DNA from: a virus
Taxonomy: Duplodnaviria; Heunggongvirae; Uroviricota; Caudoviricetes
Length of the DNA: 64,000 nt
Direction: 5' to 3' (one strand)
IMG/VR virus record: IMGVR_UViG_3300044445_000054
Shown here: positions 1,116-50,297 of the stretch, piece after piece
Layout of the letters: each line of letters starts with the position of its first letter
How positions within the stretch are numbered: the first letter of the stretch is position 1
Program-made: the position numbers and the translations under genes
The notes under the pieces: generated by a model
Databases searched by the model: none
The model's input: the letters and a program-made list of their open reading frames with translations, nothing else
What the model was told of the DNA's origin: nothing

Positions 1116-1440
1116 GCCCGTTTTTGTGATCGGTGGGCCAAGCCGCCGGTGGGTCAGGCTGCGAGAGCCATGACCTCCGAGGAGTCGTTGTCGTTGGCGT
1201 TTATTCTACACCGCAAGGAAGCTCGATCCTAGTTCGCCCCCCAACAGAGCAAGCGGGCAGTTCGAGGAGAGTTTTGCACCATGCCCGCCGGGAGTCGAAC
1301 CCGTTTCGGTTGGGGTCACGATCCCCGCTGCACTCTCTGGCCGACCGTTGGCCTTTGCTGACCGCTTGCTCTGGTGGAGGCGGCGGGTACCGCCCCCGCG
1401 TCACTCCCAGCAGTCCGGCCTTGCGACCGGACGCCTGATC
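1116..1440 (-). ncRNA. ssrA: tmRNA-like gene (permuted two-piece type), boundaries approximate
   Basis: Minus-sense 1198->1154 reads GCCAACGACAACGACTCCTCGGAGGTCATGGCTCTCGCAGCCTGA = ANDNDSSEVMALAA*, a tmRNA-tag-like peptide. Upstream at about 1241 is GGGGGGCGAACUAGGAUCGAGC, resembling a tmRNA 5' end. Further upstream, at about 1399->1372, is GCGGG-GGCGGUA-CCCGC-CGCCUCC-ACCA: a T-arm-like stem, an acceptor 3' strand and an encoded ACCA. CGCCUCC pairs with GGGGGCG, giving G3-U70. Between the two pieces is an internal anticodon arm (anticodon CGU) plus a canonical GGUUCGACUCC T-arm. Confidence 0.5.
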
Positions 1441-2173: not shown

Positions 2174-3859
2174 CTAGGAGGTGAAGTCCAGCACCGGCCG
2201 GGTATGATCGACGGCGTTGGCCAGTGCGCTCTTTTCCTTCACGATCTCGTACATCCGGTCGTCGATCGAGTCCTCGTACTTGAAGAAGATGACGAACAGC
2301 GTCTTGGTGCGCGAACCGCGGCTCGCGCGCCGGTACGCCTGCAGGATGTTGACGTCCATGAAGTCGATCGACGCGAAGATGACGAGGTCGAACATCTCCC
2401 AGTTGTACCCGACCGCGGTGGTCGGACCGGATGCGACGATCACGTCCAGCTCGCCGCGCTGCGCCGCCTCGTCAATGCGGATGCGCTCGGCACCCGACAC
2501 GTTGGCGTTGATGAGCGCGACCCGCAGGTCCAGCGACTCGGCGAGCCGCTTGATGCGCTCCTGCTCGGGCTGGAGCGAGGCGAAGATGAGCGTTTTCTTG
2601 CCGCCCGACAGGTGGACCATCAGCCGCTCGTCCTTCTCCGTCCACTCCGGCATGTCCGCCAGCATGGTCTCGGGATGCGCCATGATCTGACGGGCGCGCA
2701 TCTGCGCCACGCCTGTCATGCTGCCGTCGAGGATGCGCCCGTCGGCCAGCTCCAGCAACGCGTTGTCGTGGAACTCGTCGTAGGCGGCGCGCACCTTCTC
2801 GTGCATCTCGATCGTCTCGGCGGCGAACACCACGTCCTCTTTGCCGTAGACCTCCTCGAAGGTGCGGCGGATGGAGTGCTTGGCGAGGATCGCCGTCAGC
2901 TTGGCGTGGTTCTTCCACCGGATCGGGCGGCCATAGTCGTCCATCGCAAGGACGTGCTCGAACACGAAGCCCTGACGATTGCCGTAATAGCGCGGCTCGA
3001 TGACGTGGACGGCCGGGAAGGCCGTATCCAGCCGCCCGTTGATGAGCGTGCCCGTCATGCCGACGAAGCGGTGGACGCGGCGGTTGACCTCGAAGAACGA
3101 GGCCGTCAGCTTGGAGTCCAGTCCGCCGTACGCCATGTGCAGCTCGTCGACGAGCAGCAGGTCGATATCGGGGAAGGCGGCGAGCACGCGCTCCCAGTGC
3201 GCCGACATGAAAGCGAACGTGCAGATGACAGCCTTGACGCCGTCGGCCGCCGCGGACGCGATCAGGTCTTTGAACAGCTCGGGGTCGTTGCGGGTGGCCT
3301 TCTGCGCAAGCCCGTCAGGGCCACAGACAGGCTCAACAGCCAGCCAACCCTCGGGGATGGCCTCGTACTGCCCCTTGCCGTTCAGCGTGGCCCAGTGGCC
3401 GTCCTCGTGACGATAGCAGAACTTGAGCGGGCCGAGGCCGCGGGCCTTCGCCGCGTCCGCCAGCTCGAATGTCGTGGTCTCGGTCGTCGTACCCGGCAGG
3501 CGCACGCGGTAGCCGCTGCGCTTGCGGTCGGCGGCGATCGTCGGCCCCGTCCAGTTCGCCGTCAGCGCGGCGCGGTCGGTGCGCAGGATCGCCACGTCGT
3601 CGCCGGGCGTGTACTTCTTGTCGTTCGACACCTTGAACTCGGTAAACCGGACCAATTCCCGGAGGTTCTTCTTCAGCAGCGACTTGGGCATCGACCACAG
3701 GGTCTTCTTCTGCCCACGTGCCCACATCATGTACGAGTAGACGCAGCAGGGCGGGGTCTTGCCGGTGCCTGGATCCGAAAGGTCGAGGCACTTGGGGTTC
3801 TTGATATAGAACGCCAATTGCTGAATCTGTTTTTCCCGCAGCTGTGGAATGTCAGTCAC
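2174..3859 (-). CDS. SNF2/DEAD-like superfamily-2 DNA helicase
   Basis: Walker A DPGTGKT, DELH box (LLLVDELHMAYGG), C-terminal helicase domain. GTG start preceded by AGGGAGA. Confidence 0.85.
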   Translation of the reverse strand: MTDIPQLREKQIQQLAFYIKNPKCLDLSDPGTGKTPPCCVYSYMMWARGQKKTLWSMPKSLLKKNLRELVRFTEFKVSNDKKYTPGDDVAILRTDRAALTANWTGPTIAADRKRSGYRVRLPGTTTETTTFELADAAKARGLGPLKFCYRHEDGHWATLNGKGQYEAIPEGWLAVEPVCGPDGLAQKATRNDPELFKDLIASAAADGVKAVICTFAFMSAHWERVLAAFPDIDLLLVDELHMAYGGLDSKLTASFFEVNRRVHRFVGMTGTLINGRLDTAFPAVHVIEPRYYGNRQGFVFEHVLAMDDYGRPIRWKNHAKLTAILAKHSIRRTFEEVYGKEDVVFAAETIEMHEKVRAAYDEFHDNALLELADGRILDGSMTGVAQMRARQIMAHPETMLADMPEWTEKDERLMVHLSGGKKTLIFASLQPEQERIKRLAESLDLRVALINANVSGAERIRIDEAAQRGELDVIVASGPTTAVGYNWEMFDLVIFASIDFMDVNILQAYRRASRGSRTKTLFVIFFKYEDSIDDRMYEIVKEKSALANAVDHTRPVLDFTS

Positions 3860-4028
3860 GTCGGCATCTCCCTGTCGGTGTCATGAGCGCGTTCAGGCAT
3901 TCTTCCTTGGCCTCGGCGTGCCACGCGCGGGCGGCCTGCTGCGGCGTGTTGTAGAAGGCAAGGACGCGCAGCTCGATCGAGGCGTAGTCCGCCTCTAGGA
4001 AATCTCCGGGGCATCGTTCATCAGGCAT
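3852..4028 (-). CDS. small hypothetical protein (~58 aa), not in the ORF track
   Basis: MPDERCPGDFLEADYASIELRVLAFYNTPQQAARAWHAEAKEECLNALMTPTGRCRRD. Strong SD GCAGGAGGATATT before the ATG. Its stop overlaps the helicase GTG start (coupling). Start coordinate approximate. Confidence 0.4.
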   Translation of the reverse strand: MPDERCPGDFLEADYASIELRVLAFYNTPQQAARAWHAEAKEECLNALMTPTGRCRRD

Positions 4029-4131
4029 AATATCCTCCTGCGCACACGCGGCGCACGTGACTGGCTGAGCAGATGTTGCAGGTGGCGACGGTCGAAGGGG
4101 CCGACAAGCGCCGACCCCTTCATTATATCCG

Positions 4132-5010
4132 TCAGGGTCGGCCTAGCGTGGACAACATCGGAAAGTTGTCTCGCATCCGCCGTTCGTTCTCCTCGATATG
4201 CTCGTGCATCATCCGAGCTACCATCGGGACTTCGTCGTGATGGACTGTCACCTTGAAGTTGTCCGTCGAGTTCGGGTGAGGCTTGACGATCGAGAGCGCC
4301 AGCTCCTTGGCTATGCGTTCGGCCAGCCGCTTCGGGTAGACAAACTCGCCGCCCCGCTTGCGCAGTAGCTCGCTCAGATCGGTGGCTTCCAAAGGCTTGC
4401 GTGTCATCAGCGTTATTGGGCCACCCACGTTCATCGTCCGAGATGTGCCATGATCGAACACCAGCGGCTGACCCGGCGTCGTCGCCCTGCTCCCAAGGTT
4501 CAGTTTCCAAGACGGGTACTTCTCCTTGAGGCGCGACCACCGTTCCAAGGAACGGACGAACTCGCTGTCGTTCACGACAGGCACGAGCCGGAAGACCTGC
4601 GCCCGCTTGTCGAGGTGGTAGTCCCGCGTGCGCAGGATGCGCTTGCCGTCGAACTCGATCTGGCAAATGCCGAAGTCGAACTCCTTGAGCGCATACGGCA
4701 TCACGATGATGTTGATCGGCGGACAGCCGGGGAACTTGGTCTCCAGCGACATCGAAATACGCTCGCCGTTGTAGGTCTTGTCGCTGACCACGTCGATGTC
4801 CTGCCAGCCGTCGGCAGCCATCGCCCTCCGAACACGGCGACCGTGCTCGACGTCAGTCGACTCGCACGGCACGAAGATGTCGATGTCCTTGACCTTCACG
4901 CCCTGCTCCCGGTCGCGGAGACAGCCACCGGCCATCACCGCATCGGGGTAGAGCACCTGCACCGAGGCGAGCGCGCTGCGCCACGCCTTCGGGATGTCCG
5001 CGACTTCCAT
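4132..5010 (-). CDS. CCA-adding enzyme / poly(A) polymerase-family nucleotidyltransferase (head domain)
   Basis: AGGCLRDREQGVKVKDIDIFVP matches the GGxVRD...DxDh signature of the tRNA nucleotidyltransferase family. AAGGGG SD. Confidence 0.6.
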   Translation of the reverse strand: MEVADIPKAWRSALASVQVLYPDAVMAGGCLRDREQGVKVKDIDIFVPCESTDVEHGRRVRRAMAADGWQDIDVVSDKTYNGERISMSLETKFPGCPPINIIVMPYALKEFDFGICQIEFDGKRILRTRDYHLDKRAQVFRLVPVVNDSEFVRSLERWSRLKEKYPSWKLNLGSRATTPGQPLVFDHGTSRTMNVGGPITLMTRKPLEATDLSELLRKRGGEFVYPKRLAERIAKELALSIVKPHPNSTDNFKVTVHHDEVPMVARMMHEHIEENERRMRDNFPMLSTLGRP

Positions 5011-5030
5011 GTCATTTCCCCTTCAGGAGA

Positions 5031-5696
5031 TTATCGAGCGATTGATGCGACGCCCGCAAGACCCGGTACTGGACCGAGTCCATCCGGCTGACGATCGAGG
5101 CCGGGAGCGGCGGGCGGGGCGGCGGTGCTGGGGCGGGTGTCATCGGCTTTCTCCAATCGGTGCTGAACGAGCTGGCCCTGACCCCATGCGAGGGAAGCCA
5201 GCGCGCGGTCATATAGGCGACGGTCGCCCTTGTTCATGACCTCCAAGACCAACTCCTTCTCGCGCAGGTAGGTCCGTGCGAAGCCGGGGTCGTTGGCCGC
5301 AATCGACGACGTGTTGTCGATCAAGTCGGCCAGCTTGATGTCCTGCGCCTGCGCGCTGATCGTCGCCAGCCGCTCGCGCTCCAGCTGCTTGCGCGCCGCC
5401 CGGTTGCCCTGCGAGGGCAGGACGAACTGGTCGGTCAGGTCGAAGACCATCGCGGCCACCGCGCTGCCGAAGCGGCGCTCGATCGTCTCGATCGAGACAG
5501 GCGTGTCTTCGACCACGTCGTGGAGGACGGCGGCGACCAGCTGGTCTTCGGTCACGATCGAGGCCGTTTCGTGGAGGATCGTCATCACCCGCAGCGGGTG
5601 AACGATGTAGGGCAGGCCGTCATACTTGCGCACCTGCCCGCCGTGCGCCACCGCGGCGAACGCGATGGCTTGGTCCAGTTGTTTCCAGCTCGTCAC
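5031..5696 (-). CDS. HD-domain (p)ppGpp hydrolase-like protein (SpoT/small-alarmone-hydrolase type)
   Basis: AHGGQVRKYDGLPYIVHPLRVMTILHE...AAVLHDVVEDT is nearly the SpoT N-terminal HD consensus. GTG start in GTGA overlap with the upstream gene, GAGGAGA SD. The N-terminal 156 codons of the track ORF are rejected as upstream read-through. Confidence 0.65.
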   Translation of the reverse strand: MTSWKQLDQAIAFAAVAHGGQVRKYDGLPYIVHPLRVMTILHETASIVTEDQLVAAVLHDVVEDTPVSIETIERRFGSAVAAMVFDLTDQFVLPSQGNRAARKQLERERLATISAQAQDIKLADLIDNTSSIAANDPGFARTYLREKELVLEVMNKGDRRLYDRALASLAWGQGQLVQHRLEKADDTRPSTAAPPAAPGLDRQPDGLGPVPGLAGVASIAR

Positions 5697-6076
5697 AGTT
5701 CGGTCTCCTCGTATTGCAGGCCGTTCAGCACCTTGACAGGCACCTCGAACTCGACCTGCGTCGACGTGCCGCCGCGGTTCTTCGGCATGAGATCGCGGCG
5801 CGGACTGGCGAAGATCGTCAGCTTGATAGCATCCATCTTGGCCTGCGACGACAGATGGTAGCGCTTGAACTCGATGACCGTGCCCTCTTCGAGAACGAAC
5901 TCGGTCATCCGTTCCGCCGCCTTGTAGTCCCATACCACACCGGGATTGTTGATGCGCCACGCCGCGTCGCGGACGTTGGTGTTGCCGTAAGCGTTCACGC
6001 AGTCGGCGATCACGATCTTCCACGAAGCGAGCAGGCGCAGCTTCGATTTGAGCGGCGGGATGTAGAGCTGGGTCAT
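5693..6076 (-). CDS. hypothetical protein (127 aa)
   Basis: Protein-like composition. ATGA overlap with the upstream gene, GTGA overlap with the downstream gene. Confidence 0.55.
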   Translation of the reverse strand: MTQLYIPPLKSKLRLLASWKIVIADCVNAYGNTNVRDAAWRINNPGVVWDYKAAERMTEFVLEEGTVIEFKRYHLSSQAKMDAIKLTIFASPRRDLMPKNRGGTSTQVEFEVPVKVLNGLQYEETEL

Positions 6077-6360
6077 TCCATTCCCTCCACCAGCGAAACA
6101 TCAGCGCACCGCAACACGAAGTTCGAGACGGTGCGGTGATGACCGTACGCCGCCGTGCCGCCATACTTCTTCATGGTCAGCTCCGGCGTCTCGCCCATCA
6201 GGATGGTGACCTGCACGGCCTCGTCGTCGGTCGCCGCTTGGTTGACCCGCGTCTTGTCGACGCGGAACACCGTGCCCTTCTGCATGCTCTGGCCGTAGCG
6301 GCAGTCGATGTCCTGCTCGGCGCGGAAGCGGTCACGGCGGTTGGGGATCAACAGTTTCAT
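6073..6360 (-). CDS. hypothetical protein (95 aa)
   Basis: Internal ATG (MKLLIPNRRDR) gives ATGA coupling with the upstream gene's stop. Confidence 0.45.
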   Translation of the reverse strand: MKLLIPNRRDRFRAEQDIDCRYGQSMQKGTVFRVDKTRVNQAATDDEAVQVTILMGETPELTMKKYGGTAAYGHHRTVSNFVLRCADVSLVEGME

Positions 6361-6908
6361 GGGCGCAGCTCCTGATAGCGGCGAATGAAGTTCGCCTTGG
6401 CCTGTCGGGGCGTCCACGACGTCAGGTCGACGCCGGGCATGTCCTTGAGGTGTTCATATTCGATGCCGTCGAGCACCGCCCACTTCTCTTTCAGCTCCTT
6501 GACGTACGTCGCCTCAAGCCCGAGCATCTGGGCGTCGGCGAGCTTGACCTCGGGGGCGAGCGGGTAGGTGAAGCCGAACCGGCGCGACATGGCCGACTCG
6601 ATCTTCACTTCCAGTTCCTTGAAGATCGGCAGCGCCGTCTTCAGGGGCGTCGGCAGGTCGTTGGTGAATGCCTCGGCCGTGTCGTGCATCAGCGCATCGA
6701 AAGCAAACGCCGGTGACACAATGTACGAGCAGTTCACGACGTGCTGTGCCACCGAATAGAACCTCGGCAGATGGCCGGCGAAGCGGCAGATGTTCGACAG
6801 CGGTGTGGCGATGTCGTCGATCGTCAGCGGGCATTCGTCAGGGTTGAGGTAGTCGAAATACGACCCGCTCAACATAGAAATGCCTGCGGTCAACGGAATA
6901 GCGTTCAT
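6357..6908 (-). CDS. HD-domain phosphohydrolase (YfbR-like 5'-deoxynucleotidase type)
   Basis: RFAGHLPRFYSVAQHV...ALMHDTAEAFTNDLPTPLK fits the H...HD...D metal-binding pattern. Confidence 0.6.
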   Translation of the reverse strand: MNAIPLTAGISMLSGSYFDYLNPDECPLTIDDIATPLSNICRFAGHLPRFYSVAQHVVNCSYIVSPAFAFDALMHDTAEAFTNDLPTPLKTALPIFKELEVKIESAMSRRFGFTYPLAPEVKLADAQMLGLEATYVKELKEKWAVLDGIEYEHLKDMPGVDLTSWTPRQAKANFIRRYQELRP

Positions 6909-7537
6909 GCCTGTTGCTCCTTGCGTGCTTGGTTCTCAGCCCACTTGCCCTGCTCGTCGTAGTCGAACGTTTTCTTGAACAGCGTGCCCGACGGGCCGTG
7001 GCGCATCACGATGCCCTCGGGGTCCATGAAGCCGGGCGCAAAGCGCGAGCCGTTGGCCTTGAGGTCGTCCATGATCCGCGCGAACTCCGCGCCCGGCTCG
7101 CCCATGTAGCCCTCCGCCAGCACCGGCACGACAGTAACGCGGTCCGGCAGGTCAGCACCTGTCCAGCGCGCCGTGTTGAACAGCGCGAACCGCTTATCTG
7201 GCAGGCCGTACTGGCGCTTGTTGATGCCCTTGCCGACCCACTCACCGTAGTGACGGCCCTCGCCGAGCATGGCGATGAGAGCCTTTTGGCTTTGATGCAC
7301 GAACTGAGCGAAGCCCGCGTTGTCCTTGTCCAAGGACAGCAGGTTGTTCCGGGACTGCGCGAAGATGCCGAGGCCACTCTCGCGGTCGTAGCCAAGGCGA
7401 TGTCGCTGCTGTTCTTCAGTGCCACGCTCGGTTGTCGGCGCGATCAACACGCAGGCGTTGGTGCCGTCGAGCTTCTCGGTGATCGCCCAGCCGTGGCTGA
7501 ACCGGGTGAGGCTTGCGAACTTCTCGAACATAATCAT
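6905..7537 (-). CDS. RNA ligase (Rnl2-like nucleotidyltransferase domain, PF09414-type)
   Basis: WAITEKLDGTNACVL matches motif I KxDGTN of Rnl2-type ligases. ~210 aa, typical of phage stand-alone RNA-ligase domains. ATG preceded by GGAGAA. Confidence 0.55.
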   Translation of the reverse strand: MIMFEKFASLTRFSHGWAITEKLDGTNACVLIAPTTERGTEEQQRHRLGYDRESGLGIFAQSRNNLLSLDKDNAGFAQFVHQSQKALIAMLGEGRHYGEWVGKGINKRQYGLPDKRFALFNTARWTGADLPDRVTVVPVLAEGYMGEPGAEFARIMDDLKANGSRFAPGFMDPEGIVMRHGPSGTLFKKTFDYDEQGKWAENQARKEQQA

Positions 7538-7578
7538 TCTCCATTGGAAGGTGGGCCGCCCGAAGGCGGCCCGGTAGG

Positions 7579-7884
7579 TCAGCTGGCGAACAGGAGCGCC
7601 GCGATGACGAGGATCACGGCGATGCTGCCGATGACCCACATCTTGAGCTTGCGGTTCGGCTCGAAGTCGCCCTCGCTCAGGTCGAAGATTTGGTACCAGA
7701 CGTAGTCGCTGGGGATCATCGACTGGCTCGGGTTGTCGTTGCTCAACACGCCGACGAACGGCTTGCCCGAAGGATTGAGGCTGAACCCGGTGCCGACATT
7801 GTCGTCGGCGTAGGCGGTGTAGACGAAAGGCTCGGTCGGCTCGGGAGTGAAGCCACCGGGACGGTCAACAGGGGTATCACGCAT
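7579..7884 (-). CDS. small membrane protein (C-terminal TM helix)
   Basis: MRDTPVDRPGG...KMWVIGSIAVILVIAALLFAS. GGAGAA SD. Confidence 0.45.
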   Translation of the reverse strand: MRDTPVDRPGGFTPEPTEPFVYTAYADDNVGTGFSLNPSGKPFVGVLSNDNPSQSMIPSDYVWYQIFDLSEGDFEPNRKLKMWVIGSIAVILVIAALLFAS

Positions 7885-7960
7885 GCTCGTTCTCCTTGGG
7901 TAAAAGAAAACCCGGCCCACACATCGTGGACCGGGTTGTAGAAGTCAACAGATATATAAC

Positions 7961-11762: not shown

Positions 11763-11957
11763 CTAAAGGATGGGAGTGAAGATGTACGCACCGTGTTCGA
11801 TGCGATGCGCGCCGCCGAGGCGACCCGCTTTCTTGAGATTGAAGCACCGCTTGCGCAGCTTGTCGTCGCGCCACCGCAGCGTCACCCTGAAGTAACCCTG
11901 ATGCTTGGCGATCGCGACGATCTGATCGGCTGTGAGGCCCGAGCCTCGGTTGGTCAT
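11763..11957 (-). CDS. small hypothetical protein (64 aa)
   Basis: MTNRGSGLTADQIVAIAKHQGYFRVTLRWRDDKLRKRCFNLKK... ATGA overlap with the NTase gene stop. Confidence 0.4.
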   Translation of the reverse strand: MTNRGSGLTADQIVAIAKHQGYFRVTLRWRDDKLRKRCFNLKKAGRLGGAHRIEHGAYIFTPIL

Positions 11958-12928
11958 CTGATCTGCTCCATATACAGGGCCAGCACCGTGCGGTCGGCCA
12001 GCTTGTGATCGGACTTCTCGGGCAGGATGCTGTCTTCCGACGCGCGACCGACGGCGGCGACCAGTTCCTCCAGCTCGGCGGACACGTCGCTGTACGGGTA
12101 CATGCCCTGCTTGATGCCGAGCAGGTAGGCGGCGTCGGGCCGCGGGAACGTGATGTGCCCGGTCTCCAGCAGCTCGATCGCCTGCCCCGCCACGCGCACG
12201 GCGTGGCTCACGGCTTTCCAGTCGATGCCGTCGTTGTCCTTGGCCTTGCGGGCACGCTCGCCGTAGTTCTCCCAGACCTTGGTCCAGATTTTCTCGGCCT
12301 CTTCGATCGAGATCGTCATCGGCACCTTGCGGTCGCAGACATTCAGGTGCCAGCAGCTCTTGCCGCCGGGGTGCGGGATGTCCTCCCACATGACGTGCTC
12401 ACGACCGGCCGACCAGTCGTGCAGCTTGGCCTCGATCGCCGACATCTTGGCCGTGCGGGTCAGGCCCAGCTTGGCGATCGCGAGGAAGTCAAGCACGCCT
12501 CGCACCGCACCCATGCGCGAACCCTTGATGCCGTACTTCGCCGCCTGCCGGACGCAGTAGCCGACGAAGCCCTTGCACTGGCGGTTGAGCAGCTGCTTGC
12601 CGATGTTGCGGACATTCAACCACTCGGCGCTCGGGTAGTCGACGGGAGCGAACAGGATTTCGGTGGCGACGGTGTCGCCCTTCATCAGCATCTCGAAGAA
12701 CTTGGCGACGCTAAACGACTCGTCGTCGATCGCGTCCGCGGTGTTCTTGTCGGTGCCCTCCGCCTTGGACACGACGTTGCGGTTGATGTGGTTCTCGGGG
12801 CGGCCGAGCACGATCGCCTCACCGGACGGCAAGTGCACGCCCTTGAAGTCCTGATCGGACTGCGGTGTCGAGGTGCCGTACAGGTGCGAGCCGTGGCGGA
12901 TGCGGACGAGTTGACGGACGGGTTTCAT
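11954..12928 (-). CDS. Pol-beta-superfamily nucleotidyltransferase (MNT/ANT-like motif), function unknown
   Basis: RHGSHLYGTSTPQSDQDFKGV fits GSx9-11DxD. 325 aa with a C-terminal helical domain. GGAGAA SD before MKPV. Confidence 0.5.
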   Translation of the reverse strand: MKPVRQLVRIRHGSHLYGTSTPQSDQDFKGVHLPSGEAIVLGRPENHINRNVVSKAEGTDKNTADAIDDESFSVAKFFEMLMKGDTVATEILFAPVDYPSAEWLNVRNIGKQLLNRQCKGFVGYCVRQAAKYGIKGSRMGAVRGVLDFLAIAKLGLTRTAKMSAIEAKLHDWSAGREHVMWEDIPHPGGKSCWHLNVCDRKVPMTISIEEAEKIWTKVWENYGERARKAKDNDGIDWKAVSHAVRVAGQAIELLETGHITFPRPDAAYLLGIKQGMYPYSDVSAELEELVAAVGRASEDSILPEKSDHKLADRTVLALYMEQIR

Positions 12929-15334: not shown

Positions 15335-16498
15335 TTAGTCCTTGCGACCCTCCGGTTGGAAGTCCACCACAACGGGGAAGCGCGGGACACCGTCCGGCGA
15401 CCGCATGAAGAAGCGAACCGTCGCGGTCGCGGTCGGCCACCACTCGGGGTGCGCCTGCCAGTCGGCGAGCAGCGCCTTGTTCTTGGCGTAGCTGCCGCGG
15501 ATGCCCGCGCCGAACACGTCTTGCGGGAAGCCCTCGTTGTTAATCAGGCTCATGCGCTTGGCCGCACCCGCCCAGTTGCCGGTGCCCGCCTCGATCGACA
15601 TCACCCTGAACTCTTCAGTGATGAAGTCCTTCATCTTGAGCAGGCCCTTGGAGCGGCGGCCGATCTCGTACTCGTAGCCGTCGGGGGCGAAGATGCCGCC
15701 TTCGTAGCCGTCGCCGATCGCCTCGCCGTACTTCTGGCGCAGCTCGACCTCGGTCTCGATGCGCGTGCCGAGCACCACTCGGATCCAATCCTCGGGGATG
15801 TTGGCCTCGTCGAGCAGCACCGCCAGCTGGAGCTTTCGGGCCGACCGATTGCCGCTGCCCGTCACCAGATCGTAGGCGTGGTACTGCATGACCTTCTCGG
15901 CCAGCTCCAGCTGCTCGGCAGTCGGGTTCTTCTTGCGGACGATCGAGCTGATCGCACCGAAGTCCTCGCGCAGGTCGTGGTTGTAAAGCTCGCCGTCGAT
16001 GACCGCGTCGGGTTCGATCGCGAACAGCGGCGCGAGGGCTGCGTGGATGTGGGGGACAGCGATGATCGGCTGGCCCTGCCGCGTCCACAAGCCGTTGATG
16101 TCGGCGATGCAGCGGATGCCGTCGAACTTGGGATCGAACGTGCCCGGCCCCGGAAACTTGTCGTAGGTCTTGGCGAGCATCGGCTCGATCATCTTGGGCT
16201 GCGACACCGTGTCCGCGGTCAGATGGTACTCGCGGTTCAGCTGGTGATCGTACTGCGCCAGCACCTCGAAGCGCGCCTGCTCGAAGGCGGTCTCCTTGGA
16301 CTTGGGCACCACGTCCGTCCAGCCGGACTCCGCCTGCTTGCCGTCGGCCAGGCCGGACAGCGTGCGGTAGCGGCCGAGCGGCGCGTTCAGCTCCATCGCC
16401 CACGTCCGCAGGCGGCCGGTGCTGTCGAGCTTGTAGAGGGTCGGCCCCATGCCAATCGTGGGCAGGACGCCGTCGATGCGTGCGATATACTGGCTCAT
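15335..16498 (-). CDS. ATP-dependent DNA ligase (T7-type)
   Basis: Motif I DPKFDGIRC (KxDGxR), motif III-like IDGELY. 387 aa. Confidence 0.85.
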   Translation of the reverse strand: MSQYIARIDGVLPTIGMGPTLYKLDSTGRLRTWAMELNAPLGRYRTLSGLADGKQAESGWTDVVPKSKETAFEQARFEVLAQYDHQLNREYHLTADTVSQPKMIEPMLAKTYDKFPGPGTFDPKFDGIRCIADINGLWTRQGQPIIAVPHIHAALAPLFAIEPDAVIDGELYNHDLREDFGAISSIVRKKNPTAEQLELAEKVMQYHAYDLVTGSGNRSARKLQLAVLLDEANIPEDWIRVVLGTRIETEVELRQKYGEAIGDGYEGGIFAPDGYEYEIGRRSKGLLKMKDFITEEFRVMSIEAGTGNWAGAAKRMSLINNEGFPQDVFGAGIRGSYAKNKALLADWQAHPEWWPTATATVRFFMRSPDGVPRFPVVVDFQPEGRKD

Positions 16499-16740
16499 GC
16501 GAGCAAATCCTTATGAATGTAGACCATCGAGTGCGTCGATGATCCGGCGTTGTTGAAGGGATAATACTGCCCCGGTGCTTCGAGGCTCAGCTCTTCCGAA
16601 CTGCGCCACACGCCCGCGCACGGCCCGCCGATGCACAGGTATCGCTGCACGCGGTGCCGCCGCGGCGGGCCGCCGCGCAGGATCGGCGCAGTCTTGACGA
16701 AGTAGTGGGTGCCCTTGTCGGACAGGATTTCGACGCTCAA
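16495..16740 (-). CDS. hypothetical protein (81 aa)
   Basis: ATGA overlap with the ligase gene. Confidence 0.4.
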   Translation of the reverse strand: MSVEILSDKGTHYFVKTAPILRGGPPRRHRVQRYLCIGGPCAGVWRSSEELSLEAPGQYYPFNNAGSSTHSMVYIHKDLLA

Positions 16741-19709: not shown

Positions 19710-20936
19710 TTAGCCGACGTCCTTCGTCAGACGGACGAGGTCGAACTGCGACACCGAGCTGTCGCTGTTGAAGCGACCGGTCGCGGTGTAGACGTTGCCG
19801 CCGTCATCGACGATCGGATAGCCGGAGCCATCCCGCGCCGTGGCGATCGCCACCCTCGAACCGTTCCGACGCATCCACGTCTGACCCACGGCGAAACCGC
19901 CGCGAGTGCGCGCGATCTTCGGTGCCCGGCGGATCACGTCGATCACGTCGTAGTAACGATCGCTTTCAGGCGTATCGCTTCCCGCGTCACGACCAGTCCG
20001 GGCATGAACATGCAGCGGCTCGATCGCCAACTTGACGACGCCGACACACGCCACGGATCGCACCGTCGTTTCACGACCGTCGCGCAACCGCACCACATCG
20101 CCCGGCTTGAGATCGCCGGTCCACGTCCGAACCTTGCGGGCCGGAGCCACCGGAGCAGGCGACCAGTCGTAGACACGCGCCGTGCCGTAGTAGTCGCGCG
20201 CCGCCTTGTGCGGCACCTCGCCGACGACGGTCAGCTTGCAGCACCGGCCCTTGGACAGGTTGTAGTCCGTCGGGATCGCGGTGATGTCGGCCGGGTTCAC
20301 GGTGACGGCCATGAGGCGGTCGCCGCTGTCGAACGAGCCGTACGAGCCGCTCTCGACATATTCCATCGAGCAGAAGTGGATGCCCGTGGAGCACGTCTGA
20401 TTGCGGTTCGGATTGCACTCCTCACGCGGCTCGGTGACGACGTCGCCGATCTGGTGACGCAGCTTGCCGCGCTTGCCTGCCCGCTTCGAGTAGAAGTCCG
20501 ACTGGACGATCTTCCACGCCAGCAGCTGGCCGTCCGGCGTGATCGGCAGGTTGCCCTTGACGCACCAGTCATAAATGGTGTCGACCAGCGCCAGATCAGG
20601 GTTATTCCGGCAGTTCGCAAGGAACTTCTGGAAGGGAAGTGCCGCAGCCGGGTCTCCCGACTTGACGAAGTTCAGGATGACAGTCGCGAGGTTGTTCTTC
20701 ACCTCGGAGCCGCGATAGTACAGCTTGCCGTTGACGACCTTGATCTCGTCGCCGGTGAAGCTGGTGATCGCGGTCGGGATGTCGAGCAGCGGGGTGATGT
20801 CCCGCTCGGTCGTGTTCGGCTTCGTCGCCAGCTCGGAGAGCTGCTTGAAGTTCGGGTGCGACGAGGGGATGATGTGCGGACGGAAGTTCACGATCAGCGT
20901 GAGCGAAGTCGGCGTGCGAGTGTAGGCGATACCCAT
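19710..20936 (-). CDS. hypothetical protein (408 aa), possibly rIIB-like
   Basis: Adjacent to and co-oriented with the rIIA-like GHKL ATPase gene. Size and position fit an rIIA/rIIB pair. No motif seen. Confidence 0.35.
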   Translation of the reverse strand: MGIAYTRTPTSLTLIVNFRPHIIPSSHPNFKQLSELATKPNTTERDITPLLDIPTAITSFTGDEIKVVNGKLYYRGSEVKNNLATVILNFVKSGDPAAALPFQKFLANCRNNPDLALVDTIYDWCVKGNLPITPDGQLLAWKIVQSDFYSKRAGKRGKLRHQIGDVVTEPREECNPNRNQTCSTGIHFCSMEYVESGSYGSFDSGDRLMAVTVNPADITAIPTDYNLSKGRCCKLTVVGEVPHKAARDYYGTARVYDWSPAPVAPARKVRTWTGDLKPGDVVRLRDGRETTVRSVACVGVVKLAIEPLHVHARTGRDAGSDTPESDRYYDVIDVIRRAPKIARTRGGFAVGQTWMRRNGSRVAIATARDGSGYPIVDDGGNVYTATGRFNSDSSVSQFDLVRLTKDVG

Positions 20937-21005
20937 GATGTTCTCCAGTTCAAGTTCGGTTTCGGTAACGTGCCGCGGAAGCCGCCGCGGCTCGGTCGTA
21001 CACGC

Positions 21006-23114
21006 TTACAGGTGCTTAAACAAGATGTCGCGGTGATCCGCATCCTTGAGATCAAGCACATTCAGCAGGATGCGAACATCGCGCTGTTTCTCTTCGAGCG
21101 CCTCGGTCAGCGCCTTCGGGTTGATGCCGTCGGGCAGCTTGGCCTTGACGAACGGGGCCAGCCTGCGCTGGTCCGTGTTCAAGGGCTGGACGTATTTCTT
21201 CCATGCGCTGAACAGCTTGCCGAACGGGCGGTTGCGCGCCGCGGCCGGAAGCATGTCGTAGCGATGGTCGTGACGCATGTTGAAGAAGTCGTCCGACAAG
21301 CCCATCATGCGCCGATCGTTGGCCAGCGCCAGCTGTGCAGGCAGTTCGGGATACGCCGCCAGCGCCTTCTTCAATCGCTCGGCGAACACGTCGTCGAAGG
21401 ACTGGAAGGTTGCCGTGAGCTTGCTCTCGTCAGCCTGATTGACGAACACCAGCTCGCCGAACGACACCAGCTCGGCCGCCATCTTGTTATGGAAGCCGTT
21501 CGGCAGGTCGAACGAGTTCATGACCACCATGATGCCCTTGGCCGGTTGGTCGGCGTAAGGCACCTCGGTGACCGCCTTCTCCTTGCTGCGAGACGGCGTC
21601 AGGTTGTTGATCGGCCGATGCGTGTAGGCATCGTTGCCGCCGTTGAACAAGAACATGCGGACGCGAGGCCGCACATTCTTGACGCGCGCCGCGGCTGCGG
21701 CAGGCTCGGGCATCGACGAGGTCAGCACGTAGTCGGTCGGGTTGCGCATCAGGCCCAGCAGAAACTGGACCTTGGTCTCGTCCTCACCGCGCAGCACGAG
21801 CGTTTTCTTCACCTGCGGCTGGTCGGTGATGTACTCGCGCAGACGTGCCGTCGTCTTCGACTTGGGCGACTGCGGCAGGTCGTCGATGATGAGCGTCTCG
21901 ATCTCGCCCGGCGTGATGCCGTACAGCTCGACCAGACCGGTCCACTTGGGCGTCGGGCAAGTCGAGGACCGCCGCGAGCGCTGCGGGTCGACCGTCCACG
22001 CCTTGACCCCGTTGCCCCACACGATGCCGAGCGCCTTGGCGTCGTCCGATGCAATGCGGAACGACGTCTCCAGCTTGTTGCCCTTGTACTTGGCGTTCGC
22101 CATGAGCAGCTTGCCGCGGCCGGTGGTGGCCGTGCTGCCCGTGCCGACTTCCTCGTACAGACGCTTCATCGCGTCCCACTCGCTCGCGTCGTTGTCGAAG
22201 TAATGCGAGAACGTGGCGACCACGTCGTCGATCACTGACTCCAGCGCGATGCGGATGTTCTCGGTGGTCTTGGGGATGTACGACAGCTGCTCGCGTGACA
22301 TCGCCACGCCGCACGCGCCGAGCGGCAGGATAAGGTCGAGGCCGTATTCGAGCAGCGGCGACAGCTTGGCGTCGGAGCGCAGCTTCCAGTCGAGCGACGA
22401 CGTGGCGACCGGGTAACGCACGCCGCCCATGATGACGCCCAGCGGTCCAGCCTTGGGGCGGATAGACCAGTTGGTGCCGACGTAAGTATAGTCGGGGGCG
22501 TTCAAAGTACCGTTCGTGACGAGCGGCAGCGGCCGGAAGTATTGGAGCGCTTCCTGCGCCGCAGCAGTGAACGTCTCCATGTCGGCTTCCTCGACCGGGA
22601 AGCTGACCTCGACGCCGTTCGGCTCGTCGGTCGTGGTCTGGCCCTGCAAGCCGACGGCGGGGATGCCGTCCTCGTCCTTGAACATCGTGTAGACGGACAG
22701 GATGCCCTCGTGGACGACGCGCAGGGTGTACTGGTCGACGTAAGCGAACGGCGACTTGGAGCCGATGCCGAACCCGCCGATGTCGTCGTCCGACTTGTCC
22801 TTGGTCGAGCCGTCGGTGTACGCCATGAACGGCCCCATGACGAAGTCGTGGGCCATGCCGGTGCCGAAGTCACGGACGATGCAGGTGGGGTCGAGCGAGC
22901 ACGGCAGCTGGACCTCGACCGGGCGGGTCGGACACACGGTCCGCTGCGCGTCGATGCCGTTGGCGACCAGCTCGCGGAAGATTGCGAGCGGCTTGTTGGC
23001 GTAGGTGTCGTTGGCGAACATGTCGAAAATCTTCGGCGTCGCCTTGATGGTCGCCTTGGCGACCTGCATCGTGCCTTGCGAGCTAACCTCGCGGCGAACT
23101 TGTTCGAGCTGCAT
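21006..23114 (-). CDS. rIIA-like protein with N-terminal GHKL (HATPase_c) ATPase domain
   Basis: N-box ELVANGIDA, G1 box DFGTGM, G2 box GGFGIGSKS. ~700 aa, as in T4 rIIA. Confidence 0.5.
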   Translation of the reverse strand: MQLEQVRREVSSQGTMQVAKATIKATPKIFDMFANDTYANKPLAIFRELVANGIDAQRTVCPTRPVEVQLPCSLDPTCIVRDFGTGMAHDFVMGPFMAYTDGSTKDKSDDDIGGFGIGSKSPFAYVDQYTLRVVHEGILSVYTMFKDEDGIPAVGLQGQTTTDEPNGVEVSFPVEEADMETFTAAAQEALQYFRPLPLVTNGTLNAPDYTYVGTNWSIRPKAGPLGVIMGGVRYPVATSSLDWKLRSDAKLSPLLEYGLDLILPLGACGVAMSREQLSYIPKTTENIRIALESVIDDVVATFSHYFDNDASEWDAMKRLYEEVGTGSTATTGRGKLLMANAKYKGNKLETSFRIASDDAKALGIVWGNGVKAWTVDPQRSRRSSTCPTPKWTGLVELYGITPGEIETLIIDDLPQSPKSKTTARLREYITDQPQVKKTLVLRGEDETKVQFLLGLMRNPTDYVLTSSMPEPAAAAARVKNVRPRVRMFLFNGGNDAYTHRPINNLTPSRSKEKAVTEVPYADQPAKGIMVVMNSFDLPNGFHNKMAAELVSFGELVFVNQADESKLTATFQSFDDVFAERLKKALAAYPELPAQLALANDRRMMGLSDDFFNMRHDHRYDMLPAAARNRPFGKLFSAWKKYVQPLNTDQRRLAPFVKAKLPDGINPKALTEALEEKQRDVRILLNVLDLKDADHRDILFKHL

Positions 23115-23276
23115 GATTTTGGATCCTCTTGTTGAGATAGTCGAGGCCCTCGCTGGTGAGGGCCTCATCATTGTCGGCGTCGAAGTCAGGGTCGACGATG
23201 TTGGAGGAAACGACGGGCACCGAGCCACCCGCGTCGATCCTCGAAAAGGTGCGAAATACTCGGTGCCCGTTCGGTG

Positions 23277-31415: not shown

Positions 31416-32255
31416 TTATTGGGGAATAGTGACGCAGGGCGTATCGCTGTTGCAGTACACAGTGTTGGGCAGCTTGCCGTCCCACTTGCGCATGTATTCG
31501 GACTGGTAGCCCGGATTTTGGGCGACGACCGCGTTGCGCAGGCGAGTTGCCTCGGCTTGGCCGCGCGCCTTCTCGATCTGGGCATCGGCAGCGGCCTTGG
31601 CCTCGGCCACCTGTGCCTGTCCCTCGGCCTCGGCGGTCAGCACGCGGGCCTTGGCTGCGATCGCGGCCTGCTCGGTCTGGGCACGGGCGTTGATGCGCTC
31701 GGTGATCGCCTCGGGGATGCGGATCGGGCCAGCCCAATCGAGCTGCTCGATGATGAGGCCACGCGGCGCGAAGTAGGCGGCGACCTTGCGCTGGGCCTGC
31801 TGGATTAGCGCGGCCTTGCGCTTGCCGTAGATGTCCTCGACCGACATGGTGGAGGCGACCGACACGATCGCGGCCTTGACGCGGTCACGCACCGGGCCGG
31901 ACACGATGGTGTCCATCTCGCCACGGTACGTCTGGAACAGGATCGGGGCCTTGTTCGGGTCGGCGCGGTAGGCGACGTTGACGTCGGCCGACACGATCAG
32001 GCCGTTCACGTCTTGGAACGTGATCGACTCGTCACGCTCTTCCGACTTCTGCCACGAATAGCGGTTCGTGTAGGTCGGGTAGGAGTAGATGTCGGAGCCG
32101 AACTGGAACCAGTAAGTGCCCACGCCCAGCGGCTTGGCCTGCACGCCTGCGCTGGAGCCGTAGTTGTTGACCTTGACGCCGATGTTGCCCGACGAAATGC
32201 GGTCGCAGGCCGCGAGCGATAGGCCAGCGATGAGGATGGCGAGGAGTTTCTTCAC
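31416..32255 (-). CDS. SPFH/band-7 family lipoprotein
   Basis: GTG start with AAGGAAAT SD. Lipobox signal VKKLLAILIAGLSLAAC. SPFH core followed by an Ala/Glu/Gln-rich coiled coil, AEAEGQAQVAEAKAAADAQIEKARGQAEA. Confidence 0.65.
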   Translation of the reverse strand: MKKLLAILIAGLSLAACDRISSGNIGVKVNNYGSSAGVQAKPLGVGTYWFQFGSDIYSYPTYTNRYSWQKSEERDESITFQDVNGLIVSADVNVAYRADPNKAPILFQTYRGEMDTIVSGPVRDRVKAAIVSVASTMSVEDIYGKRKAALIQQAQRKVAAYFAPRGLIIEQLDWAGPIRIPEAITERINARAQTEQAAIAAKARVLTAEAEGQAQVAEAKAAADAQIEKARGQAEATRLRNAVVAQNPGYQSEYMRKWDGKLPNTVYCNSDTPCVTIPQ

Positions 32256-32434
32256 GGGATTTCCTTCTTCACGAATGTGTAGAGAGCGTGTGAGCCGTAG
32301 AGCGTCGCAGCCGCGATGAGCAGCGCGAGGACCAAGGCACCGTCGTTCTGGAGGTTGACGAGACCGGGGATGACCACCCGGACGATCAGGATGATCGCAA
32401 CCAGCCACGCGAGGAAGATGTAGAAGCGAGTCAT
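32252..32434 (-). CDS. small membrane protein (60 aa, 2 TM) coupled to the SPFH gene
   Basis: MTRFYIFLAWLVAIILIVRVVIPG...LVLALLIAAATLYG. GTGA overlap. Confidence 0.4.
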   Translation of the reverse strand: MTRFYIFLAWLVAIILIVRVVIPGLVNLQNDGALVLALLIAAATLYGSHALYTFVKKEIP

Positions 32435-32646
32435 TCTGATCTCCGGTGTGGGTAGGGCAAGTGGGCGGATTAGGCCCGAGGTCATGATTGCCTCCTGTGT
32501 TGTGCCCGCCAATTCTGGTGGTACGGGCGCACCGAATGCTTATGCAGCTAGGGCGGGTCTTACACCTTGCGGATGCCCAGTTCTATATGTTGTCGGCAGA
32601 GAGTACAGGGTAGTTTGCTACGTGTCGGGAATTGGCCCGGTCTGGG

Positions 32647-39436: not shown

Positions 39437-39439
39437 GAA

Positions 39440-45245: not shown

Positions 45246-45273
45246 GCCGTCGCCTTCAATCTAAGGCGACGGC
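45246..45273 (+). other. 9-bp hairpin GCCGTCGCC-(10 nt)-GGCGACGGC abutting the terminase ATG
   Basis: The right arm ends 1 nt before the ATG at 45274 and contains the only SD-like AAGG. Approximate coordinates. Confidence 0.4.
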
Positions 45274-47031
45274 ATGTTCGACGAACTATATCAAGCAGTG
45301 AAGATGCGCTTCGGCGACGTGAACGCGTCGCAGTCGATGGGCAACTGGATCACGTCGAACACCACCATCAAGAAGCGCCCTTTCTCGTACGAGGGCTACG
45401 GCTTCCAGAAAGCCATCGCCGACGACATGCACCGCAACGTGTCGGTGAAGAAGTGCTCGCAGATCGGCCTCACCGAGGTCCAAATCCGCAAGTTCTTGGC
45501 GATCCTCACCCGATCGACAGCGATCGCGGGCATCTTCTCGATGCCCAACGAGAAGATGTTCACCAAGACCTATAACGGTCGCATCAAGCCGATCCTCGAA
45601 GCGGATGCCGTCTTCAACCCGCCGTCGGCCATGAAGCCGACGCGGTCGAAGGATCAAATCCAAATCCGGGACAGCTTCGGCTATATCACCGCCTGTACCG
45701 AGGGCGACGCCACCTCGCTGTCCGCCGACTTCCTGTTCCACGACGAGCTGGACCTCAGCCCGCAGGAGATCATCGCACTGTACCAGAGCCGCCTCCAAGG
45801 CTCGGACATGCAGATCACCCAGTCCTTCTCGACCCCGACCTTCTCCGGCTACGGCATCGACAAGAACTATCAGCTGACCGACCAGCGCGAGTACAAGGCG
45901 AAGTGCGGTGGCTGCGGCCGGTGGCACATCCCGCTGTTCAAGCCCGAGTTCATCTACCTCAAGAAGTTCCCGTTCGACGTCGAGCACTTCACGGAGCTGA
46001 CGGCGCAGCAGATCGCGCTGCTCGATCTGGAGGACTGCCACGTCAAGTGCCCCGACTGCTCGACGCGGTTCGATCTGGGCAACGACGACCTGCGCGAGTG
46101 GGTGGCGCTGCGCCCGTCGGTGCTCAACTTCCGCGGCTATCAGGTCCGCCCCTTCTCGACGCCGCGCATCAAGCCGTCCTACATCTTCGGGCAGCTGGCG
46201 CAGTATCAGGAGAAGTCGTTCACCCGAGGCTTCTACAACACCGTGCTCGGCGAGGAATACACCGCCGCCGACGCGCGCCTGCAAGAGGCCGACATCAAGG
46301 CCTGCATGGCGAAGGGCACCGCCGCGGTGCCGGACATTTCGGCGGACACGCCGTGCTACATGGGCATCGACGTCGGCCTGACCTGCTACATCACCGTCAG
46401 CTATGACGATGACGACGGCAACCCGCACTTCGTCTATTGGGACACGGTGCCCGCCTCGTCGCTCCAGCGCCGGGTCGAGGAGTTGTGCCGGGTCTACAAC
46501 ATCGTGCAGGGCGCGATCGACCGCTTCCCGTACACGACCGAGGCGGATGCGCTGCGCGACACGACGCAGGGCCTCATCATCCCGGTCCAGTACCGCGGTC
46601 TTCAGATGCTGTCGCCGGTGATGGAAGCCGACACCAAGGTCTTGAACCATTATTCCGCAAACAACACGCTGGCGCTCGATCGCGTGCAGGCGCTGGTCAG
46701 CCACCGGGTCATGACGATCTCCGGCTATCAGGGCCAGCGCGAGACGGTCATCAAGCACCTGATGGACATGGTCCGCGACGACAAGCCGTCGGACAGCGAC
46801 AACGTGCTGGGCGAGTGGAAGAAGACCAGTGGCAACGACCACTTCATGCACTCGGCCGCCTTCAACCTGCTCGCGCGCCGGATCGGCGACCACATGTTCG
46901 CGACCCAGATTTCAACGGTGGCCACTACTTCCTCTTTTCTCGGGGCGAGCTTTGCGAGTACGCAAGGAATGCTCAACTTCAACGGGACCGGCAAAATGAC
47001 CGGCCTCAACCGCATTTCGAGGCTCGGATAA
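45274..47031 (+). CDS. terL: terminase large subunit
   Basis: 585 aa. Deviant Walker A VKKCSQIGLTE (T4 gp17-type SRQLGKT variant). Walker B LFHDELD. C-terminal nuclease-like Asp-rich blocks (GIDVGLTCY). Confidence 0.7.
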   Translation: MFDELYQAVKMRFGDVNASQSMGNWITSNTTIKKRPFSYEGYGFQKAIADDMHRNVSVKKCSQIGLTEVQIRKFLAILTRSTAIAGIFSMPNEKMFTKTYNGRIKPILEADAVFNPPSAMKPTRSKDQIQIRDSFGYITACTEGDATSLSADFLFHDELDLSPQEIIALYQSRLQGSDMQITQSFSTPTFSGYGIDKNYQLTDQREYKAKCGGCGRWHIPLFKPEFIYLKKFPFDVEHFTELTAQQIALLDLEDCHVKCPDCSTRFDLGNDDLREWVALRPSVLNFRGYQVRPFSTPRIKPSYIFGQLAQYQEKSFTRGFYNTVLGEEYTAADARLQEADIKACMAKGTAAVPDISADTPCYMGIDVGLTCYITVSYDDDDGNPHFVYWDTVPASSLQRRVEELCRVYNIVQGAIDRFPYTTEADALRDTTQGLIIPVQYRGLQMLSPVMEADTKVLNHYSANNTLALDRVQALVSHRVMTISGYQGQRETVIKHLMDMVRDDKPSDSDNVLGEWKKTSGNDHFMHSAAFNLLARRIGDHMFATQISTVATTSSFLGASFASTQGMLNFNGTGKMTGLNRISRLG

Positions 47032-50285: not shown

Positions 50286-50297
50286 GGAACCGCAGAC

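Follow-up and report, generated by a model that had tools for sequence, protein, structure and literature searches.

A variable, translationally coupled gene island for an RNA ligase, two HD hydrolases and a head-only nucleotidyltransferase in a tailed phage

Results

Layout of the operon

We examined a 64-kb stretch of tailed-phage DNA (IMG/VR record IMGVR_UViG_3300044445_000054, hereafter the window) and in particular a minus-strand gene cluster at positions 4132–7537. An earlier note, made from the sequence, had described this segment as an RNA-repair and nucleotide-signalling gene cluster. As an account of the genes present, that description stands. Its coordinates are exact, with position 4132 the final base of the stop codon of a nucleotidyltransferase (NTase) gene and position 7537 the first ATG of a ligase gene; all of the motifs it quoted are present, and the four enzyme families it named hold at the level of fold or family.

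Six minus-strand genes lie between 7577 and 4093, flanked by two hairpins (Table 1), in a slot between the genes for a class II ribonucleotide reductase (RNR) and a SNF2-type helicase. Stop-start overlaps of the ATGA or GTGA kind join all six genes, except for a 20-nt gap ahead of the NTase gene, and the genes form one translationally coupled operon in the window genome. This coupling had been overlooked earlier, as had sm1 and sm2, two small genes that separate one HD gene from the other. The upstream hairpin separates the ligase gene from a membrane-protein gene. It has no U tract and was therefore not called in a terminator scan. For the downstream hairpin, none of 200 shuffles folded equally well. 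Only one hairpin of the region is terminator-like in the classical sense, T tract included; it is at 7909–7937 on the minus strand, after the RNR gene, and a gene for a small, C-terminally hydrophobic protein (7579–7884) lies between this hairpin and the operon.

Table 1. Features of the operon and associated RNA-related genes in the window
Feature	Position	Strand	Description
Hairpin, 5' boundary of unit	7553–7572	-	GC-rich, 8-bp stem, UUCG loop; dG -20.7 kcal/mol, z -2.06
RNA ligase	6905–7537	-	210 aa; 208 aa from ATG 7531, the start used by the Joint Genome Institute (JGI)
HD1, YfbR/DatZ-like HD phosphohydrolase	6357–6908	-	183 aa; start overlaps ligase stop (ATGA)
sm1, small protein	6073–6360	-	95 aa; ATGA overlap at both ends
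sm2, small protein	5693–6076	-	127 aa; ATGA overlap with sm1
SAH, small alarmone hydrolase, PaSpo/Mesh1 type	5031–5696	-	221 aa; GTG start overlaps sm2 stop (GTGA)
NTase, class II head-only	4132–5010	-	292 aa; 20-nt gap after SAH
Hairpin, 3' boundary of unit	4093–4122	-	13-bp, directly past NTase stop; dG -24.7 kcal/mol, z -3.6
RlaP RNA-repair nucleotidyltransferase	11954–12928	-	PF10127, 38.2 bits (cut-off 23); phrog_388, 7e-76
Permuted two-piece tmRNA, alpha-proteobacterial type	1154–1420	-	RF04321, 50.3 bits; RF01849, 51.9 bits; above gathering scores

The RNA ligase

The first gene of the operon encodes a ligase that matches PF09414 (RNA_ligase) at 1.6e-10, with 41.8 bits against a cut-off of 27, and phrog_548 (RNA ligase) at 4.6e-22. 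A Pfam scan gave no DNA_ligase_A_M match for this protein, and the DNA ligase proper of the window is a separate gene at 15335–16510. The enzyme thus falls in an RNA-ligase family and not in a DNA-ligase family. Ligase motifs I (KLDGTN), III (HYGEWVG), IV (PEGIVMR) and V (LFKKTF) can all be found, and residues K22, G25, N27, G98, E99, W100, E174, G175 and K188 are invariant across 15 homologues. A search of the PDB with the single sequence gave no match and a profile was needed. The profile built from the 15 homologues found T4 Rnl2 alone (1s68, E = 1.5e-3), and the match to 1s68 and 2hvq is limited to the N-terminal domain. The earlier assignment to the Rnl2 type is borne out by the PF09414 score, the KLDGTN motif and this single solved relative.

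The protein ends ~20 residues past motif V and therefore has no Rnl2 C-terminal domain; it consists of the adenylyltransferase domain only. In other words, it shares with T4 Rnl2 the nucleotidyltransferase motifs I, III, IV and V and a PF09414 score above threshold, but at only ~210 aa it does not contain the C-terminal domain that T4 Rnl2 needs for RNA adenylylation at a nick. This compact form is widespread, as nearly all of 3299 homologues are 200–220 aa long with PF09414 alone. We found no biochemical study of this stand-alone clade in the literature.

The alarmone hydrolase

The fifth gene encodes SAH, a hydrolase domain with no synthetase domain. It matches PF13328 (HD_4) at 2.5e-16 (60.3 bits against a cut-off of 27.2) and TIGR00691 (spoT_relA) at 7e-21, and its best solved relatives are the Mesh1 proteins of Drosophila (3nqw, 2e-19) and human (3e-15). 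The catalytic H...HD...ED...N motifs are present as AHGGQ, PYIVHP, LHDVVEDT and KLADLIDN and align with those of Mesh1. The near-exact SpoT consensus reported earlier does occur in the translation (AHGGQVRKYDGLPYIVHPL...LHDVVEDT).

The closest characterized relative, 47.1% identical along 155 aa (E = 9e-36), is SSU5_099, the PaSpo protein of Salmonella phage SSU5. Each of the five toxSAS families against which SSU5 PaSpo was tried was neutralised (PMC7229694, Table 1), and PaSpo has been used to tolerate CapRel expression (PMC9712102). Mesh1 and ATfaRel strip pyrophosphate from tRNA CCA ends, by which aminoacylation is restored (10.1101/2021.04.30.441581). By analogy with PaSpo, the earlier proposal that SAH may blunt defences of the alarmone-synthetase type has experimental support. 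Both proteins are stand-alone, phage-encoded, single RelA/SpoT homologue (RSH) hydrolase domains with HD and ED motifs. However, the window SAH has a 40-aa Pro/Ala/Gly-rich C-terminal tail that SSU5 PaSpo lacks, and its operon also encodes a ligase and an NTase, whereas the neighbours of SSU5 PaSpo are unrelated. SSU5_100, the gene that overlaps the PaSpo gene in SSU5, was considered as a relative of the NTase or of HD1 and found to be unrelated to them. An alternative-frame open reading frame (ORF) of 43 aa (MTPAPAPPPRPP...) at 5012–5143 on the minus strand overlaps the Pro/Ala/Gly-rich tail. Relatives give tblastn matches for both frames of the SAH 3' end, so conservation alone cannot tell which frame is translated.

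HD1 and the small proteins

HD1 matches phrog_318, a "deoxyribonucleoside 5' monophosphate phosphatase" family, at 5.9e-62. It scores just under the cut-off for PF12917 (24.5 against 25.9 bits). Its solved relatives are Atu1052 (2gz4, 2e-7), DatZ (0.04) and YfbR (0.7), with all of which the metal-binding motif H...HD...E...D aligns ("MHDTAEAFTNDLPTPLK"). HD1 differs from the YfbR 5'-deoxynucleotidase itself, both in the PF12917 score and in reaching only 17.7 bits against the NCBIfam 5'-deoxynucleotidase equivalog NF003009, which has a cut-off of 122. The YfbR-like label given earlier can be kept at the level of fold or family, on the strength of phrog_318, 2gz4 and the HD motif. A role for HD1 as an RNA end-healing enzyme is pure conjecture: its relatives hydrolyse deoxynucleoside mono- or triphosphates (dNMPs or dNTPs), and RNR adjoins.

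The sm1 and sm2 genes are tandem paralogues predicted to encode SH3-like beta-barrels. Their products share I6, P7, R14, G65, V67 and G102-G103 in alignment, with sm1 lacking an insert of ~36 aa. Profile searches gave no family match for sm1. For sm2 there are only three k-mer homologues, a low-confidence model and a generic SH3-like match. Together with HD1, sm2 forms the most conserved pair of the island within the lineage.

The nucleotidyltransferase

The last gene encodes the NTase, which had been taken for a class II CCA-adding or poly(A)-polymerase-type enzyme. An AlphaFold 2 model (pLDDT 83.8) has a well-defined catalytic domain (residues 1–175), a disordered linker (176–210) and an alpha/beta domain (211–285). 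Motif A, GGCLRD...DIDIF, is present in the translation. A profile-profile alignment with E. coli Cca, which spans residues 5–125 only, pairs this motif with GGAVRD...DRDWV and pairs EFDFGICQ with RRDLTINA. The family shows little or no variation at G28, G29, D42, D44 and D112. With motif A and the catalytic aspartates kept, the NTase is likely to be catalytically intact.

Canonical class II enzymes select CTP and ATP through motifs B (RRD) and D (EDxxR). The NTase reads E-F-D at the RRD position, so both motif B arginines are missing, and its EDxxR helix reads N-D-S-E-F-V-R, with a family consensus of DxxFVR in which the R is not conserved. The homologous region stops at residue ~175; the neck, body and tail tRNA-binding domains are absent, and a 75-aa domain follows the linker. 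Against PF01743 the protein scores 14.2 bits (cut-off 23) over residues 26–55 only, and it has no significant Pfam match. Likewise, 21 of 26 homologues fall under the PF01743 threshold; P0169, a distant relative, passes. The earlier class assignment is therefore correct for the head fold and for motif A (GGxxRD...DxD), which the window NTase shares with class II CCA-adding enzymes and poly(A) polymerase I (PF01743) along with the aspartate of the "DFTIN"-like strand, but it does not extend to RRD, the canonical EDxxR, the neck, body and tail, or the PF01743 threshold.

Searches of the PDB by sequence returned noise (the ribosomal protein L9 C-domain at E = 0.18 with the single sequence, the human CCA enzyme at E = 0.6 with a profile), and a fold search was the sole informative route to structural relatives of the NTase. 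The BFVD neighbours, 170–220 aa long, come from T7-like and other phages and are of the "Poly A polymerase head domain" kind. An exhaustive search gave 2322 cluster representatives, nearly all 170–220 aa. The C-terminal extension is confined to ~8 of these representatives, and the alpha/beta domain at 211–285 is lineage-specific. Pfam scans of long matches from a search of 1.84 billion proteins gave no informative domain fusions for this family.

Several homologues lead to Gad2, by which phages counter Gabija and in which an NTase domain has been predicted (10.1101/2023.05.01.538930). Precomputed matches to PF26128 (Gad2) have E <= 1e-5 for P0013 and P0019, homologues at 45–48% identity, and are weak for P0010 and P0026 and faint for the window NTase; the Pfam copy used with hmmscan gave no PF26128 match for the window NTase or its homologues. 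Gad2 and the head-only T7-like phage proteins are like the window NTase in having a replication-gene neighbourhood and in the PF26128 matches of homologues. The window NTase is unlike Gad2 in its faint PF26128 signal, its distinct C-terminal domain and its length, 292 aa as opposed to ~400 aa for SPbeta-type Gad2 (10.1101/2023.05.01.538930). Gabija acts at DNA ends, and the mechanism of Gad2 is still unsettled in the literature (PMC12904381).

We also took a census of the immediate same-strand neighbours of NTase genes on ~50 viral contigs, using a Pfam scan of 97 ORFs. The matches were DNA_pol_A (11), DnaB_C (9), 5'-3' exonuclease (9), Toprim (8), dNMP kinase (4) and HD_4 (2). An RNA ligase was a direct neighbour at one of the ~50 loci (contig L046). 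The annotated phages tf, Lo5R7ANS and BL198 likewise have the NTase beside replication genes. Neighbours of this kind (DNA polymerase A, primase-helicase, 5'-3' exonuclease) mark the family as a replication-module NTase and not as a tRNA enzyme.

RlaP, tmRNA and the search for a kinase

A second gene relevant to RNA repair, RlaP, had gone unmentioned in the earlier note. It lies 4.4 kb upstream of the operon and outside it. RlaP extends damaged RNA 3' ends by one or two nucleotides (PMC12776372), and its presence upstream strengthens the RNA-repair theme. Judged by its sequence, the gene belongs to the predicted RNA-repair capacity of the phage even though it is outside the operon. In this the window resembles the phage RNA-repair sets described with RlaP (Iyer et al. 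2021, PMC7824862; PMC12776372), which typically have an RlaP gene in the same genome.

The tmRNA gene lies 2.7 kb downstream of the NTase gene, and its acceptor piece encodes CCA. As read from the Rfam alignment, the tag ends ...SSEVMALAA, and the ~110-nt intervening segment holds a T-loop-like GGGUUCGACUCCC. ARAGORN did not call a tmRNA gene in the window. A tmRNA is also found at the same spot, between the helicase gene and an ssDNA-binding-like gene, in the related contigs L002 and L004, and in contig L009 it adjoins the NTase gene.

The T4 repair set differs from the window in its Pnkp-type kinase/phosphatase partner, which we did not find there. More generally, no polynucleotide 5' kinase was found in the 64-kb window of this genome of at least 131 kb. 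The sole Walker A motif in window ORFs of at least 80 aa is that of the Prim-Pol helicase (36968–39439), and Pfam scans of 30 further window ORFs gave no kinase or phosphatase families. T4-style healing and sealing is therefore incomplete: termini of the PrrC/RloC type, with 5'-OH and a 2',3'-cyclic phosphate, would not be made ligatable by the visible genes, but 3'-OH/5'-phosphate nicks could be sealed. HD1 and SAH are candidates for a 3'-phosphatase or 2',3'-cyclic phosphodiesterase only by analogy. The T4 Pnkp/Rnl1 repair logic that had been proposed for the cluster lacks support on the kinase, on an NTase without CCA-enzyme features, and on parts that are individually dispensable.

The island in relatives

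Relatives were defined as contigs that share the RNR (86–88% identity) and the helicase (79–82%), and slot content was tallied over 11 variants (Table 2). In each of them the class II RNR gene comes immediately before the island. Gene order is constant, and any element may be missing: the ligase is present in 5–6 variants, SAH in 9, a metallophosphoesterase in 6 and the NTase in 10. At least five other contigs repeat the order ligase, HD1, SAH, (metallophosphoesterase), NTase, which rules out chance juxtaposition.

Table 2. Gene content of the slot in the window and in related contigs
Contig	Genes in order
Window	ligase, HD1, sm1, sm2, SAH, NTase
L166	ligase, HD1, sm1, SAH, NTase
L167	ligase, HD1, sm2, SAH, metallophosphoesterase, NTase
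L168 (on 24 contigs)	ligase, HD1, HNH, SAH, metallophosphoesterase, NTase
L165	ligase, metallophosphoesterase, NTase
L002, L004	HD1, sm2, SAH, NTase
L029	HD1, sm2, SAH, metallophosphoesterase, NTase
L030	HD1, sm2, metallophosphoesterase, NTase
L085	HD1, sm2, SAH

The metallophosphoesterase is of the calcineurin type, ~240 aa long (phrog_1649), and is found in L028, L029, L030, L165 (993–1718), L167 (8118–8849) and L168 (9309–10028). In all six, its gene is directly upstream of the NTase gene, with which it overlaps. The window lacks it, and only the 20-nt gap lies between SAH and the NTase there. No solved structure was matched by the sequence of the metallophosphoesterase at E <= 0.01. We also considered SAH and the NTase as an obligate pair and rejected this, as L030 has the NTase without SAH and L085 has SAH without the NTase. 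SAH was found at 3 of 57 NTase loci, and the NTase at 1 of 80 SAH loci.

Adjacencies in unrelated phages

The same families also meet outside this lineage. Among 17 ligase loci, an HD1 homologue is present at 4, the NTase at 2 and tRNAs at 4. Rhizobium phages have the ligase gene directly followed by the HD hydrolase gene, and the NTase gene overlaps the ligase gene in L046, a T7-like contig. Contig L009 (75 kb, 42% G+C), a distant relative, carries, in this order, the NTase gene, a permuted tmRNA, eight tRNAs, the ligase gene, four tRNAs and a helicase gene. Its tmRNA-tRNA array (3672–7336) gives 14 Rfam tRNA matches, 12 of them called by ARAGORN, and a genome-encoded CCA follows all 14. The window has no tRNA genes. 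On these two points, we rejected CCA supply to phage tRNAs as a role of the NTase.

For SAH, the direct neighbours over ~50 distinct loci include RlaP (3), Rnl1 (1) and Metallophos (3), and the RlaP gene overlaps the end of the SAH gene in L104 and L107. Homologues of the ligase, SAH and HD1 occur in 84, 262 and 322 of 50,697 phage records, respectively. With families this rare, the adjacencies are far above random expectation, though the counts are inflated by shared accessory hot spots.

Genomic setting

The G+C content of the window is 62–68%, and its tailed-phage genes include those for the large terminase (45265–47031), the portal (47032–48558) and the major head protein (50286–51524). 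A protein identical to the NTase is encoded on a JGI contig of 131,277 bp, so the phage genome is at least 131 kb. Megablast against the 50,697 deposited phage records gave no DNA-level match to the region, and the phage is therefore not close to any deposited genome. The source phage is uncultivated, and its host is probably an alphaproteobacterium.

Two further observations concern genes elsewhere in the window. Two adjacent large ORFs at 19710–23276 on the minus strand have weak Pfam matches, both under curated cut-offs, to Multiubiquitin (PF14452, 1.3e-4) and HATPase_c_3 (PF13589, 8.9e-5); the two might make up a phage-borne conflict module of the ubiquitin-like or MORC-like kind. A phage-encoded SPFH/Band 7 protein (PF01145, 3.5e-21) is found at 31416–32582 on the minus strand, and an ORF that looks similar in translation is present in L107 (4217–5077), ~0.85 kb upstream of the SAH-RlaP pair.

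Discussion

As observed, the island has a defined structure, a recurrent gene order and a variable content, and its enzymes have recognizable families or folds and catalytic residues. We read it, with belief and doubt about evenly balanced, as a variable, operon-organised accessory island of damage-reversal or counter-defence enzymes, in which the ligase, RlaP and SAH belong to an RNA/translation theme and HD1 and the NTase to a nucleotide/DNA side. Each enzyme would reverse or pre-empt a separate kind of host-inflicted damage, with no single linear pathway. From its family membership, the ligase would seal 3'-OH/5'-phosphate nicks in RNA. Its partner is probably RlaP, which, going by its family, can replace one or two nucleotides that have been lost. 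The 47% identity of SAH to SSU5 PaSpo suggests that it may remove the 3'-pyrophosphate set on tRNA CCA ends by CapRel/FaRel2-type toxSAS and, alternatively or additionally, may hydrolyse (p)ppGpp and (p)ppApp. The NTase appears to be a member of a Gad2-like phage family and would act on a nucleic-acid 3' end, of RNA or of DNA. HD1 most likely acts on deoxynucleotides, beside RNR.

Several findings weigh against an accessory island of this loose kind. Coupling this tight, and an order that is kept in at least five contigs, exceed what is expected of a random set of accessory genes, pairs of the same families adjoin in unrelated phages (NTase and ligase in L046, ligase and HD1 in Rhizobium phages, SAH and RlaP in L104 and L107), the ligase, metallophosphoesterase and NTase genes are contiguous in L165, and in L009 the NTase gene directly precedes a tmRNA and a tRNA array within which the ligase gene lies. 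Coupling, fixed order and cross-phage adjacencies favour a shared RNA substrate. It is possible, if doubtful, that the enzymes make up one integrated repair system, with the same damaged tRNA or tmRNA molecules as the substrate of all of them. SAH, HD1 or the metallophosphoesterase of relatives would heal blocked 3' ends (3'-pyrophosphate, 3'-phosphate or 2',3'-cyclic phosphate), the NTase or RlaP would then restore 3' nucleotides, including CCA, and the ligase would seal anticodon-loop nicks. Besides the ATGA/GTGA coupling and the adjacencies just listed, such a system would fit the repetition of the order in the window, L166, L167 and L168 (24 contigs), the phage-borne tmRNA nearby, and the ability of Mesh1-type SAHs to restore aminoacylation of pyrophosphorylated tRNA (10.1101/2021.04.30.441581). 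However, with no 5' kinase in the window, breaks of the PrrC/RloC type could not be sealed. The NTase, which is without RRD, canonical EDxxR, body and tail and is below the PF01743 threshold, is a poor fit for the CCA step; its family adjoins replication genes, with an RNA ligase as neighbour at 1 of ~50 loci, and CCA is already encoded by 14 of 14 L009 tRNAs, with no tRNA genes at all in the window. HD1 has dNMP/dNTP hydrolases for relatives, and the parts are lost independently among close relatives.

The position of the island right after the class II RNR in every relative brings up a different explanation, to which we give little credence, namely a nucleotide-pool or signalling module tied to RNR. 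HD1 would act on dNMPs or dNTPs, in line with its phrog match to a dNMP phosphatase and its resemblance to DatZ and YfbR, and SAH would keep (p)ppGpp low for the growth state of the host. The NTase would serve DNA replication or a Gad2-like protection of ends against Gabija; its gene is just upstream of a block of helicase, 5'-3' exonuclease and DNA polymerase A genes, the family as a whole adjoins replication genes and dNMP kinase, and homologues match Pfam Gad2, with Gabija acting at DNA ends (PMC12904381). The ligase would be a passenger, which leaves unexplained why its gene comes first in the operon and overlaps HD1 by ATGA, and why it directly precedes HD1 in unrelated Rhizobium phages. 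The SAH-RlaP adjacency and the NTase-ligase overlap in L046 are equally unaccounted for, and the Gad2 label predicts no substrate while the mechanism of Gad2 is unsettled (PMC12904381). We retain the accessory island of separately acting enzymes as our working interpretation.

Phage RNA repair by ligases, RlaP and CCA enzymes has already been described (PMC7824862), as have phage alarmone hydrolases (PMC7229694). We found no earlier description in the literature of this recurring gene combination. The present analysis adds a fixed order that ties a PaSpo-type hydrolase, at times with a metallophosphoesterase, to a head-only NTase and a minimal RNA ligase, and it adds independent pairwise adjacencies of the same families in unrelated phages. 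It also indicates that "tRNA nucleotidyltransferase" labels on such short phage NTases are unjustified by their motifs and domain content. Two hypotheses are raised: phage SAHs may heal RNA 3' ends beside enzymes that add 3' nucleotides, and the Gad2-like NTase family may have here a candidate class of substrate. Taken furthest, SAH (or the metallophosphoesterase), a head-only NTase or RlaP, and a minimal ligase would make up an undescribed phage pathway of RNA 3'-end repair, a proposal that we regard as improbable at present. SAH or the phosphoesterase would strip 3'-pyrophosphate or phosphate, left by toxSAS-type or other defences, from the CCA ends of tRNA or tmRNA, the NTase would rebuild the end, and the ligase would seal nicks. 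If this were true, the large Gad2-like NTase family would be a family of RNA 3'-end nucleotide adders.

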